Assembly (NCBI GenBank): GCA_019058275.1
Contig: JAHLVW010000094.1
Span: forward strand, 71,980 to 103,979
DNA: 32,000 nt
Direction of reading: 5' to 3'
Source: Candidatus Heimdallarchaeota archaeon
Lineage (GTDB): Archaea; Asgardarchaeota; Heimdallarchaeia; JABLTI01
The notes below the pieces were generated by a model. It made no database searches, was not told where the DNA came from, and was given only the letters and a program-made list of their open reading frames with translations. This document shows, piece by piece, positions 1,735-32,000 of this stretch (the stretch's first letter is position 1; each line of letters starts with the position of its first letter). The translations under genes and the position numbers were made by a program.

Positions 1735-1813
1735 TGGAGCCGTTGGAGGGATTTGAACCCTCGTTCTACTGATTACGAAGCAGGTGCCTTAGACCAAGCT
1801 TGGCCACAACGGC
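1735..1813 (-). tRNA. tRNA, most likely Thr (anticodon CGU), with genomically encoded CCA
   Basis: The reverse complement is GCCGTTGTGGCCAAGCTTGGTCTAAGGCACCTGCTTCGTAATCAGTAGAACGAGGGTTCAAATCCCTCCAACGGCTCCA. It has a 7-bp acceptor stem (GCCGTTG/CAACGGC), a T arm GAGGG-TTCAAAT-CCCTC, and the D-arm positions U8, A14, G18G19 and A21. In standard register the anticodon loop is TTCGTAA (U33, CGT, A37). The discriminator is U73. The anticodon stem is irregular (see findings). Confidence 0.75.
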
Positions 1814-4315: not shown

Positions 4316-5092
4316 ATGATATACTCTTCTAGTGTGGGAATAATGAATTCAGATATGGAATCATGCATTAAGATAGTAAAAGAGCTAAAACGTAAAGGTG
4401 CAATTAATGCTTATGTTCTTACAGGAGCAGGAATTTCGAGAGCTTCTAATATTCCTACATTTCGAGGAGAAGATGGTCTATGGGAAAAGTACAATTTTGA
4501 AGAAGTTGCTACAATTGATGCATGGTTGAAAAATCCAACTAAGATATGGACTTTCTATGCTGAGGGTATTGATATTATTCTGAATGCTGAACCCAATCCA
4601 GCACATAAATCCATTACTCAATTACAAGAACATGGATTCTGCAAATACATAATCACTCAAAATGTTGATAACCTTCATCAAAAAGCTGGATCAAAGGATG
4701 TTCTTGAGATACATGGAAATATAACACGTGTTCGTTGTATGGAGTGCAATGAGAAGCAAGTTTATACAGAACCCCTAAAAGAAATTCCTCCAATGTGTAA
4801 GTGTGGAGGTATGCTGAGACTAGATGTCGTTCTATTTAATGAACAACTACCATACGAATTGATAAATAAGGCATTTGATATTGCAAAAAAAGCTGATTTA
4901 GTATTTATAGTTGGTACAAGCGCTGAAGTTGTACCAGCAGCTACATTACCATATATCTCTAAGAAAAATGGAGCAAAAATTATAATATTTAACAAAGAAA
5001 AAACTGAACATGTTCAAATTGCTGATTGCTTCATAACCGGAAAATGCGAGGAAAGTCTTCCGAAATTTCTGAATATGTTGCTGAATCATTAA
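4316..5092 (+). CDS. Sir2-family NAD-dependent protein deacylase
   Basis: Motifs GAGISRASNIPTFRG, QNVDNLH and HG, a zinc module CMEC...CKCGG, and GTSAEV. The start may be an internal ATG (MNSDME). Confidence 0.85.
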   Translation: MIYSSSVGIMNSDMESCIKIVKELKRKGAINAYVLTGAGISRASNIPTFRGEDGLWEKYNFEEVATIDAWLKNPTKIWTFYAEGIDIILNAEPNPAHKSITQLQEHGFCKYIITQNVDNLHQKAGSKDVLEIHGNITRVRCMECNEKQVYTEPLKEIPPMCKCGGMLRLDVVLFNEQLPYELINKAFDIAKKADLVFIVGTSAEVVPAATLPYISKKNGAKIIIFNKEKTEHVQIADCFITGKCEESLPKFLNMLLNH

Positions 5093-6476: not shown

Positions 6477-7163
6477 ATGGAAATTAAAAAATACAAATCT
6501 TTTGAAGGCATTTATCATGTAATCTTTCCAGAGGGAGTGCGAAAAATCGCAACATTGAATTTTACCCCCGGTCATCGAGTTTATGGTGAAGATTTAATTC
6601 CATTGGGTAAGCAAGAATATCGCTTATGGGACCCAACAAGATCAAAGCTCGCAGCTGCCATTGTTAAAGGTTTAAAGAAAGTACCAATAATTCCAGGTAG
6701 CTATGTTCTATATTTGGGTGCTGCTTCTGGAACAACTCCAAGTCATGTCTCTGATATCATTGGTTTAAAGGGATTTGAATATTGTATTGAATTCTCGCCT
6801 AGATCAATTAGAGATTTAGTCTTTCTATGTGAAAAACGTCAAAATATGTCGCCGATTTTAGAAGATGCAAGATATCCCAAGAACTATGAATATTTGGTTA
6901 ATCCAGTAGATGTAGTATATTGTGATATTGCACAGCCAGATCAAGCGAAAATTATGGCTGATAATGCAAATGCCTTTCTAAAGAAAGGGGGGTATATCTT
7001 ACTAGCAATTAAAGCAAGAAGCATAAGTTCGACTAAAAATCCATCAATTATTTACAAGCAACAAATGGAAATACTAGAAGATGAGGGTTTTGAAATCATA
7101 GAAGCTATAGACTTACATCCTCTAGAAAAAGACCATGCTATGATTTTAGGAAAGAAAAATTAA
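6477..7163 (+). CDS. flpA: Fibrillarin-like rRNA/tRNA 2'-O-methyltransferase
   Basis: Motifs YRLWDP.RSKLAAAI, VLYLGAASGTTPSHVSDI and D.AQPDQA. AGGTGA ribosome-binding site. Conserved operon partner of nop5. Confidence 0.95.
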   Translation: MEIKKYKSFEGIYHVIFPEGVRKIATLNFTPGHRVYGEDLIPLGKQEYRLWDPTRSKLAAAIVKGLKKVPIIPGSYVLYLGAASGTTPSHVSDIIGLKGFEYCIEFSPRSIRDLVFLCEKRQNMSPILEDARYPKNYEYLVNPVDVVYCDIAQPDQAKIMADNANAFLKKGGYILLAIKARSISSTKNPSIIYKQQMEILEDEGFEIIEAIDLHPLEKDHAMILGKKN

Positions 7164-7265
7164 GCTAGATTTTCACAAACAAAAGATTATATAAACTTGA
7201 AAGTAAATCAATAAGTATAAACTTTGAATAAAATCGCTGGATATGCATTATAGGAGTTTGCCAGA

Positions 7266-27539: not shown

Positions 27540-28379
27540 CTATGTTCCGAGCCTTCTTTTCATCGAACTGGTAGCATTCTTCAAGTCAGCATTGCTCATG
27601 AGAGGGAATTGATGCTTCTCAGCATCTTTGGTACATTCAAGATTTCTCTTTTTTGTTACCGATTCTGAGATTTCCTTTAAGATTATTCTGTCATTCACAA
27701 TTTTTAATGTTCCCATATAATACTCATTTATTGCTAAGTTCACCATTATTAATAAATGGGTTCTTAATGAAGTTTTTTTATAACTCATTGCTTCTACTAT
27801 GCGAGTTAACTTGTTGGAATGATATATAAAGTTATACAATTTGTAAGCGGAATCACTTCTTTTTTCAATTTCTTGTGCTAACTCTTGGAAATCTATTTCC
27901 CCATTGATTATGTCATATCTTGATTTGGTCTGCAAAACTTTTTTCCTTGTAATGTAAGATGCAATGGAATCATAACGTTTGATCAATCTGATTAGTTGAT
28001 TATCATTCAAATTGTTTCCGTGGTGGTTTAGACAAGCTTCTCGAACCTCTTCATCAAGTATCGTAACTTGTTTATAGATTTTACTTGGATGTTTCTCAGT
28101 ATGAACAAAGTCATGAAGCATAAGAGCAATCAGTAAACGCTGTAAAGATCTTGGATAATTAACTCCTAATCCTTTTCGAATCCTGAGTTTCCTTCTACGA
28201 GAAATTACCTTCTTTTTGTATGCTTCAACTTTGTAATTTAACCATTTCACTTTTCCAAATCCTTGATTTCTCTTGCTTCCTAAGTTATCGAATGCCAGTA
28301 TTCGTTCTATTTTTTCTTTACCCCTCTTTTCGTTATGATCAACACAAGTTACTTTGACAAATCCGCGAAAAGCTTTCAA
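27540..28379 (-). CDS. Downstream reading frame of a small-RAMP (Cas5/Cas6-like G-rich loop) / Cas3''-type HD nuclease fusion
   Basis: LGSKRNQGFGKV (28248-28283) is a RAMP/Cas6-type glycine-rich loop. LIALMLHDFVHTEKH has its HD at 28110-28115. The NHHG motif is at 28017-28028 and YDSIAS follows, matching the Cas3 HD motif order (HD...HHG...D..AS). The frame is open upstream to 28466 with no ATG, and the track start is TTG. See the frameshift finding. Confidence 0.6.
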   Translation of the reverse strand: MKAFRGFVKVTCVDHNEKRGKEKIERILAFDNLGSKRNQGFGKVKWLNYKVEAYKKKVISRRRKLRIRKGLGVNYPRSLQRLLIALMLHDFVHTEKHPSKIYKQVTILDEEVREACLNHHGNNLNDNQLIRLIKRYDSIASYITRKKVLQTKSRYDIINGEIDFQELAQEIEKRSDSAYKLYNFIYHSNKLTRIVEAMSYKKTSLRTHLLIMVNLAINEYYMGTLKIVNDRIILKEISESVTKKRNLECTKDAEKHQFPLMSNADLKNATSSMKRRLGT

Positions 28380-28408
28380 AACAATTGGCGCCTTTCGTTC
28401 TCCCCTTA

Positions 28409-28567
28409 CTAGTTTTCCAACATAACTCCTGCGAGGTTTTTTCTTTGTTGCAAATCCCCTACTATCTTAAACCAACACCCATGTTTCTTAAAAAATGGAG
28501 AAGAAGATACAAGAGGAGTAAGTAGTTTCCCTTCCAAAGCGAAGAGTTTCTTTTCTTGTGTTACCAT
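28409..28567 (-). CDS. 52-codon ORF, probably the true N-terminus of the RAMP-HD gene (zero frame before a -1 shift)
   Basis: Hand translation gives MVTQEKKLFALEGKLLTPLVSSSPFFKKHGCWFKIVGDLQQRKNLAGVMLEN*. Its ATG overlaps the stop of the upstream RAMP gene (ATGGTAA, 28567-28561). LTPLVSSSPFF resembles the first strand/loop of Cas5/Cmr3/Csm4-type RAMPs. It is below the ORF-track size cutoff. Confidence 0.45.
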   Translation of the reverse strand: MVTQEKKLFALEGKLLTPLVSSSPFFKKHGCWFKIVGDLQQRKNLAGVMLEN

Positions 28568-29319
28568 GCTTCCTCCATTTGCTTCCAGAGGTTTCGTTCT
28601 TTTTCCTCCTCGATTATTTTACCATTTTTTCCAATTGTTCTTGTCCGAAAAACTTCTTGGAGAACAATCTCCAGTAATTCAATTTTACCTGAGCCATTGT
28701 TTACACTTCCTCCGAGTCCAAGTTCAGGCATGAATAGTATCGCTTTGAGAAGAAATCCTAGTTCTTCTTGTTTTAGTTCCTCGTTGAAATCTATTATGAA
28801 TGTGAATTCTCCAGAGAAATATCGTTCCCCGAAATCTTGCATTGCTTGTTTTAAACCATGTGTTAAACTATTTCTTGTTTCAGTTGCTATGTGCACTTTT
28901 TGTGCATCCCCATTCTCCCCTTTTGAATATGTTGAAACAATAACTACTGGTTCGAATTTTACTCGAGAAAATCTTTTTATTGACCCCATAATACTATGCC
29001 AAATACATTCACTTTCAGGGAAACACGCACCATTTGGATGGAATCCTTCTGGGAGTAGTTTTTCCCCACTTTGTGTTTCTGTTTTATCTGAAGAGTGACA
29101 GATCTCTACTCCTTGTTGTTTTGCTATTGCCATCATGGAGTGATTAAGTAATCCTCTTATCCCTTTCACTAAGTATCTTTTCCCATCGTTTCCATTTTCT
29201 CCATTTGTTCCTAGGAGTAGTAAGTTGTTTACTTTTCCTCCGGAAAACGCTCCATTTCCTGTCTTAGTAATGGGTGTTCTTACTCTTACTTTTATTCGCT
29301 TAAATTTTCTCGAAACCAT
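28561..29319 (-). CDS. Cas7-family RAMP protein (Csm3/Cmr4-like)
   Basis: Beta-1 RIKVRVRTPITKTGNG, VKGIRGLLNHS (29137-29169), a Cys/His cluster C74...CFPESECIWHSIMGS (as in the Csm3/Cmr4 ...C..C.lFGS motif), ETRN...GERYFSGEFTFIIDF, and a C-terminal G-rich loop LGLGGSVNNGSGKI (28684-28722). AGGTGA ribosome-binding site before the ATG at 29319. Confidence 0.65.
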   Translation of the reverse strand: MVSRKFKRIKVRVRTPITKTGNGAFSGGKVNNLLLLGTNGENGNDGKRYLVKGIRGLLNHSMMAIAKQQGVEICHSSDKTETQSGEKLLPEGFHPNGACFPESECIWHSIMGSIKRFSRVKFEPVVIVSTYSKGENGDAQKVHIATETRNSLTHGLKQAMQDFGERYFSGEFTFIIDFNEELKQEELGFLLKAILFMPELGLGGSVNNGSGKIELLEIVLQEVFRTRTIGKNGKIIEEEKERNLWKQMEEAW

Positions 29320-29353
29320 GTTTTTTCACCTTTTCTCTTAAATTCATTTTTCA

Positions 29354-29431
29354 AGATATGTTCATCGTGCATATCTTTAGTATATACTTTGTATATGGCA
29401 AACATTATTTATAAATATTCCTACCATATAC
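29354..29431. promoter_or_regulatory. Divergent promoter region with three palindromic elements around a TATA box
   Basis: AGATATG-N9-CATATCT (29354-29376). The 10-bp palindrome AGTATATACT (29379-29388). GTATATGG (29391-29398) and CCATATAC (29424-29431) bracket TTTATAAATA (29408-29417), which sits about 31 nt upstream of the AbrB-like ATG at 29449. Confidence 0.35.
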
Positions 29432-29448
29432 ATGTGGAGACAATTATT

Positions 29449-29613
29449 ATGACAGGACTAAAGTTTAGACGAAAGGTTATAATGAGCAACAGGAGTCTAA
29501 TGGTCAACATACCACAAGAGATAGCTGAAGCAATGGAAATAGAGAAAGGTGATGAGATAGAAATAACTTATCAAGAGAAGTCATTTACTTGCAAGAAGAA
29601 AATCAAAAATTGA
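29449..29613 (+). CDS. AbrB/SpoVT/MazE-type (swapped-hairpin) DNA-binding protein
   Basis: MTGLKFRRKVIMSNRSLMVNIPQEIAEAMEIEKGDEIEI fits the SpoVT-AbrB pattern (...vtIPkeir..lgi..Gd.v.i). The start is refined from the TTG at 29389 to the ATG at 29449, downstream of the TATA box. Confidence 0.55.
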   Translation: MTGLKFRRKVIMSNRSLMVNIPQEIAEAMEIEKGDEIEITYQEKSFTCKKKIKN

Positions 29614-29703: not shown

Positions 29704-31278
29704 ATGTCCGTGATTAATTGGCAAAATGATCCACTACTTTTCGATTTAGAACCTCAACCAGTTAATCAATGGGTAAATGCCAATGAGTTAATACAGCAAA
29801 ATCGGAGTGAAGAAATTTTTCTTTCAGATGGGTATCTGAACCTTTATCCTATTATGGTTCGGAAAAACGATTTTGTGAGACAGAAGGTTTCGGACCGGAT
29901 CATGGCTCGGTTTCCGTTCCTAGTCATAGACAAAGAAATACAAGAGCAAATAGTAAATAAAATCCTTCTGATCTCTGAAGTTACTCGAGACTATTTCTAC
30001 AAGTCAATCAATAAATCGATCTTGCAATGGAAACAAGACATTCTGAAATATTTAGGACGAGGAATTCTTCCATATCCAATTGTAAGATGTTGTTTCGAAT
30101 TAGTGCCAAATTTACACACTTTAATTAATGAAACCTCTCTTCGATTTACCAGTGCTCGAGGTGAAGGATTCAAGATGCCTAGAAAACTCACCAAAGAGTT
30201 AGCCTACCTAGCTGGAATGGTCAATGGCGACGGCAATCTCCAAAAGTATACTTTGCGAATCGTTGATTACTCGATTAAGAATATCAAGCAATTACAAGTA
30301 ATGTTCCAAGAATACTTTGATCAAACAGGAAACATTCTCTACAAAACACCAAACAGTCCGGAAGTGGTGATAACAAATCTCTGGGTCGTAAGACTTTTCT
30401 CATTCTTGACAGAACAACCTATAGGCATTAGGAAATATGATCATTTAGGAGAACCATTAGTTTTCAAACAGGAACCTTTTCGAACATATTACTGGTCTGG
30501 GGTTATGGATGCAGATGGGAGTTATAAGAAATCAAAAGTAACATTTGTTAGTGCTTCTTTACATTTTGCAAAAGATTTCAGAAATTTTCTTATAAACAAT
30601 AATATTGATTCAAAACTAACAGAGAGAGAGGATAACACAATCACTATATATATTCCTGTTAGATTTCATTCACTGCTAACTAAAGTATTAACTTGTTTAC
30701 ATCCAGAAAAGAAACTTGAATTTATACAATTAGATTCCGTTCCCTATCGAACAGTAGCGTTTTTTGCGGGATTCAAAGATTCAGCACTTGTCAATGATTA
30801 TTTTAATTTCAAATTAATGAACAATTTGAGTGTTGCTAATTTAGGGCAAACAATCCGCCAATTTAGGGGAGAACAACCTAGAAGAATTTTCGTTAAGAAT
30901 TTAGATATAAGTGAACGTGCTTTACAGGATATCGAAAAAGGGATAATGAGTATCAATATTTTACTTTTAGATGAAATCTTACAACATCAAAAGATATCCT
31001 TAATGCCTTTTCTTACACAACATGAAAATATTCGATACCATATTCGAGGTTCAAAACATGTTAAACTTGACACACGACCAAATGAGACTTTAACTTCTCT
31101 TCTGAAACCTCTTAAGTTTTACAAACACAGAACAAATATTCCTCTTTCTAATAATGTCCTTACACAAGAATTAGAAGATCATTTTCAAATCAAAATAACT
31201 AACAATAAAATAACGACTAAATTACTTCTACAATTCTTTTCAATATTCTGTAAAACACAATTAACGGAAAATCAGTAA
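29704..31278 (+). CDS. Free-standing double-motif LAGLIDADG protein with a C-terminal XRE-type HTH and an N-terminal region of about 165 aa with unknown function
   Basis: LAYLAGMVNGDG (30199-30234) and YWSGVMDADG (30490-30519) lie about 97 aa apart, and both keep the acidic residue. IRQFRGEQPRRIFVKNLDISERALQDIEKGIMSINILLLDEIL (about 30844-30978) looks like a Cro/C1 HTH. It is not embedded in an intron or intein host gene. Confidence 0.7.
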   Translation: MSVINWQNDPLLFDLEPQPVNQWVNANELIQQNRSEEIFLSDGYLNLYPIMVRKNDFVRQKVSDRIMARFPFLVIDKEIQEQIVNKILLISEVTRDYFYKSINKSILQWKQDILKYLGRGILPYPIVRCCFELVPNLHTLINETSLRFTSARGEGFKMPRKLTKELAYLAGMVNGDGNLQKYTLRIVDYSIKNIKQLQVMFQEYFDQTGNILYKTPNSPEVVITNLWVVRLFSFLTEQPIGIRKYDHLGEPLVFKQEPFRTYYWSGVMDADGSYKKSKVTFVSASLHFAKDFRNFLINNNIDSKLTEREDNTITIYIPVRFHSLLTKVLTCLHPEKKLEFIQLDSVPYRTVAFFAGFKDSALVNDYFNFKLMNNLSVANLGQTIRQFRGEQPRRIFVKNLDISERALQDIEKGIMSINILLLDEILQHQKISLMPFLTQHENIRYHIRGSKHVKLDTRPNETLTSLLKPLKFYKHRTNIPLSNNVLTQELEDHFQIKITNNKITTKLLLQFFSIFCKTQLTENQ

Positions 31279-31466: not shown

Positions 31467-32000
31467 TTGAACGCAGGATACTCAAAATCACCTATACGTG
31501 AAGCTATTTGTCAATTTAAATTTCAAAATAAGAAAGAGTGGGATTGGACAATTCCAGGTATAATTTACCAAAAAATAGAAAAAGAGTATCCGATAAAGAA
31601 AGAGTTAACAGCTTTTGGTTTTAGTTTTCCTCTTAAAAAAGAAGATGTTGAAACAACTGAATATCTGCCTTTAGTGAAAAAACCTGAGGGTATGCGTTTT
31701 CTAAATGAAGATAAAAATCGAATAATACAGGTTCAAGAAAAAACACTTTCCATTTTCATGCAATAGCCTTATTCCTCGTGGAAAGATTTCAAAAAGCAAA
31801 TTATGAAAATATTAGAAATTTACACAAAATTGCTAAAACCTGATGGAATTGTACGCATTGGTTTAAGATACATAAATAATTTCAATTTCTTACCTGATAG
31901 ATTTGAGGTAGAGAAATATTTTAATTACTATCCAGCATTCCCTAATAAAATACAAGCCACTATGGGGGAATTGATTGTTAGAAGCACAATACCCATACCA
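31467..32000 (+). pseudogene. TIGR04255-family protein gene interrupted by an in-frame TAG (31764-31766); runs off the window
   Basis: YSKSPIREAICQFKFQ is the family's N-terminal signature. After the TAG, the same frame stays open for 78 codons to the window end and contains the family's GIVRIGLRYINNF motif. The TTG start has GGTGG upstream. Confidence 0.55.

Follow-up and report, generated by a model that had tools for sequence, protein, structure and literature searches.

A Cas7 and Cas5-like/HD-like gene pair, probably of the ARAMP class, in a Heimdallarchaeota genome

The gene pair and its products

The window analysed here is a stretch of 32,000 nucleotides from a Candidatus Heimdallarchaeota genome (GenBank assembly GCA_019058275.1, contig JAHLVW010000094.1, positions 71,980 to 103,979 of the forward strand). 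Two genes on its minus strand, called gene A and gene B, encode a Cas7-like RAMP protein and a small Cas5-like RAMP joined to an HD-like domain. The pair is probably a member of ARAMP, an already described but experimentally uncharacterised class. In a secondary description, ARAMP loci are presented as CRISPR derivatives found in many Asgard archaea and distantly related to the haloarchaeal HRAMP (PMC8730458). Gene A (28561-29319) codes for 252 residues. Gene B (27540-28567) has an intact length of 342 residues, with the small RAMP at residues 1-120 and an HD-like helical domain at residues 125-300. Both genes, and all the motifs quoted for them in the initial annotation, are present in the translations. 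The translational coupling that it proposed is supported by a 7-nt overlap (ATGGTAA), which joins the stop codon of gene A with the ATG of gene B; comparable overlaps of 7-22 nt occur in three homologous loci. As was also noted, no oligo-T tract separates the stop codon of gene B from the start of the ESCRT-III (Snf7) gene, and the coding strand is A-rich there.

Gene A encodes a Cas7 of the type III/VII lineage. It matches the Pfam RAMPs family at 32.3 bits (cut-off 22.1 bits), and a profile of its family (36 members) finds in PDB the type VII Cas7 (E 2e-6) and Csm3 from M. jannaschii (E 1.5e-3). The AlphaFold2 model (pLDDT 86) leads to the same proteins, in agreement with the initial assignment as Cas7-like. 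Its first Foldseek match in PDB is the type VII Cas7 (E 9e-11, TM ~0.7), followed by Csm3, type IV Csf2 and domains of Cas7-11. The protein carries the motifs KGIRGLL and ECIWHSIMGS and a terminal G-rich loop, LGLGGSVNNGSGKI. A Cys/His cluster is invariant in the family (C74, H75, H94, C99 and C105, with H108 nearly invariant) and probably forms a zinc site. Within residues 15-50 the family alignment shows no conserved acidic residue. The catalytic Asp of Csm3 and Cmr4 is expected in the Cas7 loop after strand beta1. Because no conserved acid is found where Csm3 has this catalytic Asp, gene A looks like a non-cleaving backbone subunit, as in type VII.

The N-terminal part of gene B is also a RAMP. 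In the AlphaFold2 model (pLDDT 82), a single RAMP domain of the RRM type, including a G-rich loop, occupies residues 1-120; this region contains the motifs LTPLVSSSPFF and LGSKRNQGFGKV. All its listed Foldseek matches are RAMPs, namely Csm3, the Cas7 and Cas5 of type VII, type IV Csf3 and Cas5d (E ~1e-3, probability 1.0). The PADLOC model of type IV Cas5 weakly matches the family (E 7e-4, 3 of 23 members), and NCBIfam gave nothing useful. We call gene B Cas5-like because of these weak PADLOC matches and of its pairing with a Cas7.

The C-terminal part of gene B contains the motifs LHD, NHHG and YDSIAS. Residues G105, H152, D153, K163, D200, Y245 and H271 never vary among members that are 20-45% identical; H183 and R208 are almost invariant. 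The motif order LHD...H...HH...YDxxAS resembles motifs II-V of the HD domains of Cas3'' and Cas10d, and the HD, HH and D(xxAS) residues as well as a C-terminal His are invariant in the family. The upstream His of HD motif I is absent from the family. Of 42 members, 10 match Pfam HD (PF01966), all with scores under the threshold (best E 0.0045). A HMMER profile of the C-terminal domain, run against 1.84 billion proteins, retrieved just 108 relatives, among which no bridge to other HD families was found. An hhalign comparison with one Cas10d HD sequence was non-significant, and the aligned stretch covers the 'ADrlAS' motif V alone. We consider it quite probable that this domain is an HD-type metal-dependent nuclease. 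The RAMP-HD architecture proposed in the initial annotation thus holds for the N-terminal RAMP fold, whereas the HD part finds its support in motifs, with an unmatched fold.

One of the relatives, the metagenomic protein P0250 (536 aa), combines a Cas7, a small RAMP and an HD-like domain in a single chain. Because of this three-domain fusion, we consider genes A and B to be functionally tied. The two genes also stand side by side in almost all loci.

In the window, gene B is split into two open reading frames (ORFs), one of 52 residues (28409-28567) and one of 279 residues in another frame (27540-28379). Comparison with a sister genome, a Heimdallarchaeota contig from assembly GCA_050009915.1 (locus L001), shows that the split corresponds to a 1-nt deletion at ~28451, outside any homopolymer. 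Only ~39 correct residues are left before truncation. Two assemblies obtained independently from a near-identical organism, the one containing L001 and one from Logan (locus L002), carry gene B intact (P0072, 99% identical); its 342 residues agree with the length expected in the initial annotation once the two frames are joined.

The window and L001 can be aligned over 14.5 kb, with 99.67% identity and three indels. Two of these fall in the 1.8-kb module formed by genes A and B: the frameshift of gene B and, at the C-terminus of the Cas7, an in-frame deletion of 9 nt. Two substitutions in the Cas7 also depart from the family consensus: residue 107 is Trp in place of Arg, and residue 115 is Phe in place of Ser, a site where Ser, Pro, Gln or Ala is found in the other members. 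The module differences are at window positions 28451, 28574, 28970 and 29001. Because of the indels concentrated in the module and of the non-consensus substitutions in gene A, the window copy may be decaying or may contain assembly errors, and the sequence is compatible with either. Decay would make the locus a remnant in this strain, with a frameshifted nuclease subunit and relaxed selection. The early truncation of gene B, the clustering of the indels and the two anti-consensus changes are in favour of this explanation. However, the deletion could be an assembly error, gene B being otherwise identical to the intact copy, and the family is strongly conserved and intact in the two sister assemblies. 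Decay seems to us possible but unlikely.

Conserved partners and the adaptation-like half

The genes surrounding the pair were clustered in 31 related loci. A conserved layout emerges. It comprises a Cas4-like PD-(D/E)xK nuclease, a 230-aa protein, a ~670-aa protein, a wHTH protein, a set of variable genes, a LAGLIDADG-HTH protein and an AbrB-like protein, followed in divergent orientation by Cas7 and the Cas5-like/HD-like protein. The initial annotation had listed the AbrB-like and LAGLIDADG genes as mere neighbours of the pair. The clustering corrects this view, since AbrB-like genes are found in at least 22 of the 31 loci (two clusters that share one position, with 15 and 7 loci) and the LAGLIDADG-HTH gene in 18. 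These two genes are conserved partners of the RAMP pair.

The AbrB-like gene (29389-29613, plus strand) is divergent from cas7 and encodes a small DNA-binding protein of the AbrB/MazE type (SpoVT/AbrB; Pfam PF04014, E 1.8e-6, 28.3 bits for a cut-off of 24.7 bits). Its true start is likely at ~29452; the product would then have 54 residues, as annotated in the sister genome. The region between this gene and cas7 (29320-29448) is presumed to be a shared promoter/operator region. It contains an AT-rich repeat or palindrome at ~29371-29397, detected by Tandem Repeats Finder at 29371-29396, with an equivalent palindrome at L001:9162-9189. This palindrome may be an operator site.

The LAGLIDADG-HTH gene (29704-31278, plus strand) encodes a protein of 524 residues that matches Pfam LAGLIDADG_3 (E 1.9e-8). 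Its profile finds in PDB intein and homing endonuclease domains (E 4.7e-5), and a HipB/Xre-like HTH at residues 378-440. Both LAGLIDADG motifs are invariant (G175, D176 and G177; D269, D271, G272 and S273).

The last nucleotide of the window, 32000, corresponds to L001:6559. The adaptation-like half of the locus is located 1.7-6 kb further, at L001:623-4822. In the sister genome it consists of a wHTH regulator, a diverged Cas1 of 663 residues (L001:2079-4070), a 228-aa protein and a Cas4-like PD-(D/E)xK nuclease (L001:623-1378); the Cas1-like and Cas4-like genes are thus outside the window. The initial annotation had described the pair as a stand-alone module with no adaptation genes. Since the window ends before the Cas1-like and Cas4-like half, this description holds inside the window only. 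No cas1, cas2, cas4, cas6, cas10 or helicase gene was recognised with Pfam among the window ORFs near the pair, as had been stated, and the genes of the sister locus likewise lack such Pfam matches.

The PADLOC Cas1 models match 12 of 25 members of the ~670-aa family (best E 5.7e-6), and an hhalign comparison with canonical Asgard Cas1 covers 202 columns (E 2.4e-4). The catalytic positions of Cas1 (EG, H and D..E, forming the Glu/His/Asp-Glu triad) are aligned and conserved in the family. No Cas1 signal was obtained against E. coli Cas1 alone or against PDB; the PADLOC models and the Asgard Cas1 profile are the two sources of the signal. Judged by its sequence, the ~670-aa protein is a diverged Cas1 with apparently intact catalytic residues. 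The Cas4-like gene is recognised by PADLOC (E 2e-5), TIGR00372 (E 1.4e-3) and Pfam PDDEXK_1.

Other genes were observed around the pair and in related loci. Three genes of 253, 137 and 222 residues, the first of which begins within the window, separate the LAGLIDADG gene from the wHTH/Cas1-like half (window 31467-32000, L001:5237-7092); they are not conserved in other loci. In three Borrarchaeum loci (L026, L028 and L031), a DEAD/Hel308-like helicase of ~1320-1360 residues is encoded directly upstream of Cas7 and of a shorter Cas5-HD, on the same strand. This helicase is split into two ORFs in L028, and the combination of helicase and HD domain resembles a split Cas3. L004 carries another paralogous RAMP pair, with DUF87/TrwB-like ATPase genes upstream of it and, ~9 kb from it, an IS605 OrfB/TnpB-like gene with a Cas12f1-like TNB domain (L004:20120-21044). 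Finally, the window contains a tRNA gene unrelated to the pair (1738-1813, minus strand; Rfam RF00005, 57.8 bits).

Distribution, paralogues and CRISPR arrays

Database searches recovered 71 homologues of gene A and 117 of gene B, at 35-99% identity and with many invariant residues, which shows that the two reading frames are not chance ORFs. Nearly all come from metagenome-assembled genomes of Heimdall-, Hod-, Borr- and Thorarchaeota. The two families are essentially restricted to Asgard archaea. Several copies are present per genome, with at least 7 in CSMAG_2352. Paralogues inside one genome are 40-57% identical, and each paralogue type keeps its own housekeeping neighbour: the HD-like gene adjoins Snf7 in L001, L012 and L014, and EF2 in 7 loci. 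Because of this divergence and of the constant chromosomal neighbours across genomes, we regard the paralogues as old, vertically inherited duplicates rather than recent mobile copies.

A recently mobile element or a LAGLIDADG homing unit was considered and discarded, since the old paralogues keep their chromosomal neighbours. More generally, the module could be carried by a mobile element as cargo, form one end of such an element, or be a unit driven by LAGLIDADG homing, which would explain its multicopy state. The number of copies per genome and the DUF87/TrwB-like ATPase or IS605 OrfB genes adjoining some loci are in line with such an origin. However, the copies of one genome are too far apart in sequence and too constant in neighbourhood to support it easily. 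In addition, the gene B family has no relative in IMG/VR viral contigs, tblastn of genes A and B found none in plasmids, and no terminal repeats were seen. We hold this explanation to be highly improbable.

The absence of an array, reported in the initial annotation, is confirmed: repeat searches found neither tandem nor CRISPR-like repeats in the whole 32-kb window. There is also no array within 10 kb on either side of the L001 locus, and the repeat of a paralogous locus has no match in the window or in L001. Arrays were found in only 2 of the 31 loci. One of the array-bearing loci, L006, is a paralogous ARAMP-type locus on the same sister-genome contig, ~300 kb from the locus of the window. 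It carries two arrays (4548-4886 and 6744-7238), in which a 37-nt repeat occurs 5 and 7 times, with spacers of 38-40 nt. They are located between the Cas4-like and LAGLIDADG genes, the left-hand one being degenerate, and flank a cassette formed by a HEPN-like gene and two ~200-aa genes.

A metagenome scan found the L006 repeat in 35 loci. Repeats of this family are those of canonical type I-D systems, with Cas6d, Cas3d, Cas5d, Cas7d, Cas10d/Cas11d and ordinary Cas1, Cas2 and Cas4. The array of L057, next to LAGLIDADG-AbrB-Cas7-Cas5HD-EF2, is the array found next to Cas6d...Cas10d in L052 and L054. Similarly, the array of L038, next to the Cas1-like module, is that of L069, which runs on into type I-D genes. 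In both cases the shared spacers are identical and in the same order. The EF-2-type paralogue thus flanks a type I-D locus. In these type I-D-flanking loci, a 242-aa protein always precedes the Cas1-like gene. We take the transcribed strand of the repeat to end in ATTGAAAT; with the orientation set by this handle, the leader end of the arrays adjoins the Cas1-like module or the LAGLIDADG side. An array of 15 repeats from this family is also present in L033, near a fragment of an HD-family gene and a 1326-aa LRR/DUF4132 protein (L033:1-1180 and L033:6652-7233).

The idea that ARAMP has its own arrays was rejected, since the shared spacers identify these arrays with those standing beside canonical type I-D genes. 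It is possible that ARAMP proteins use or feed type I-D arrays. Since one type of paralogous locus borders arrays that it has in common with type I-D, guide RNAs could be supplied in trans. They are made plausible by the sister-genome paralogous locus, which carries two arrays on the same contig, and by the leader adjoining the Cas1-like module.

Alternatively, the locus could be a non-programmable defence or stress module. Its Cas7/Cas5-HD scaffold would bind always the same RNA, cellular or viral, or no RNA at all, and would act with the LAGLIDADG and PD-(D/E)xK nucleases and no spacer guides; the role of the Cas1-like protein would then be other than adaptation. Most loci indeed have no array, and the AbrB/MazE-type gene adjoining the pair recalls control of the toxin-antitoxin style. 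Several old paralogues per genome, as found here, are unusual for CRISPR effectors. Published opinion on HRAMP and ARAMP, as represented in the summaries used here, leans the same way. On the other hand, the Cas1-like protein retains the full catalytic triad and adjoins an array leader in some loci, and the G-rich loops, which are of the RNA-binding type, are conserved. On balance, a module of this kind appears to us rather unlikely.

Comparison with known systems and proposed function

ARAMP was reportedly first described by Makarova et al. in 2020 (CRISPR J 3:156), by genome analysis. The definition used here is taken from two secondary descriptions (PMC8730458 and PMC12669027). The first of these reports for ARAMP loci Cas5 and Cas7 proteins that have diverged and are nearest to those of type III, and in most cases a distinct Cas1. 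The present locus has the same Asgard host, the same kind of diverged Cas7 nearest to type III, a candidate diverged Cas5, no adjacent array, and a distinct Cas1 homologue with a PD-(D/E)xK nuclease in the locus. For Cas5, the RAMP fold is supported, and the specific match is the weak one to type IV Cas5 (E 7e-4). In the initial annotation, the architecture was not recognised from the described type I, III or IV subtypes. The published ARAMP summaries, as far as they go, do fit it. They name HNH and PD-(D/E)xK nucleases, whereas the locus also has the HD-like fusion, LAGLIDADG-HTH and AbrB. They also present ARAMP as array-less, whereas one paralogue type here flanks arrays and type I-D genes.

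Type VII provides the Cas7 that is the best structural and profile match to gene A. Like the present locus, type VII is reduced, descends from type III and lacks Cas10. Its Cas7 is catalytically inactive, as gene A also appears to be, and cleavage is left to another nuclease. In type VII this nuclease is Cas14, whereas the candidate here is the HD-like domain on the Cas5-like subunit, and there is no adjacent array. The beta-CASP/metallo-beta-lactamase domain of Cas14 has no Pfam match in four homologous loci, nor does it occur among the annotated conserved neighbour clusters. HRAMP, in the descriptions available to us, likewise consists of a diverged Cas5 and Cas7 accompanied by additional nucleases, lacks an array and is confined to a single lineage. 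In contrast with the present locus, it is not reported there to include Cas1, and tblastn searches of plasmids with genes A and B gave no sequence link to it. A nuclease is likewise placed within a Cascade subunit, instead of on a separate Cas3, in type I-E2 (Cas5-HNH) and in types I-D and IV-C (large subunits with HD). These types differ in the nuclease family or in the subunit that carries it, and have large subunits and arrays.

The locus lacks the features that define types I, III, IV and VII, with no Cas10, Cas8, Cas3 helicase, Cas14, Csf1 or DinG. For Cas10, no match was found in the window ORFs near the pair or in the L001 genes with Pfam, or in the five L001 genes upstream of the pair with PADLOC. 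The type III catalytic Asp has no counterpart among residues 15-50 of the Cas7 family. Neither the window nor L001 contains a Cas3 helicase or a Cas8/Cas10d large subunit.

The folds, the conserved residues, the linkage of the genes and their distribution across genomes can be combined into one explanation, to which we give moderate preference. The gene pair would be the effector half of an ARAMP locus, that is, of a reduced, type III-descended, Asgard-restricted and normally array-less system.

Several points weigh against this explanation. ARAMP membership rests on two secondary descriptions, neither of which, in the text available, names HD or LAGLIDADG, and expert opinion, as relayed in published summaries, predicts mechanisms distinct from CRISPR. 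The Cas5 assignment of gene B is weak (E ~1e-3). The HD assignment is at the level of motifs and the fold lacks a structural match: no HD structure is among the best 50 Foldseek matches of gene B in PDB or in BFVD, and the family profiles, full length or C-terminal domain, match no PDB sequence. Most of the 108 relatives of the C-terminal domain are fragments or have this domain at an equivalent place (~residues 105-135 to 250-300); P0250 and P0256, which are longer, have another layout. The HD-like subunit of this strain may be inactivated by the frameshift. Finally, about 28 of the 31 loci have no array inside ~10 kb, and the arrays near ARAMP genes most simply belong to type I-D systems.

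If the pair is indeed the effector half of an ARAMP locus, we infer RNA binding, nuclease activity and a source of guides as follows. Several copies of Cas7 and one Cas5-like/HD-like subunit would assemble on an RNA and form a small Cascade-like particle. Pairing of this RNA with a target would switch on or position the HD nuclease, and possibly the LAGLIDADG nuclease too. AbrB would control the expression of the operon, and the Cas1-like and Cas4-like half would handle DNA integration of some kind. Our best guess for the guides is that they would be provided in trans by arrays located elsewhere in the genome, with 37-nt repeats, a ATTGAAAT 5' handle and processing by the type I-D Cas6. The candidate array repeat in this trans-guide model is GTTGCAAAAGTAAAAGCTCAATTAAGAGTATTGAAAT.

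A more specific version, which we regard as improbable, makes the Cas7 and Cas5-HD a minimal class 1 effector that needs neither large nor small subunits. This effector would borrow type I-D guides processed by Cas6d, with the ATTGAAAT handle, and would cooperate with its own diverged Cas1/Cas4 adaptation module and with a LAGLIDADG nuclease. If this were true, ARAMP would be a programmable, array-sharing system rather than an array-less oddity, and the several paralogues per genome would give different effector outputs.

ARAMP is known solely from comparative genomics, has not been tested in the laboratory, and its mechanism has been called enigmatic. The present locus offers for experiments an overlapping Cas7/Cas5-HD pair and a natural three-domain fusion protein. 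It also offers a candidate guide-RNA repeat with its handle, together with candidate catalytic residues in four enzymes (HD, LAGLIDADG, Cas1-like and Cas4-like). If the pair is guided by RNA, it would rank among the smallest class 1 effectors known. If it is unguided, it would show what roles Cas proteins take after array loss, in the archaeal lineage closest to eukaryotes.

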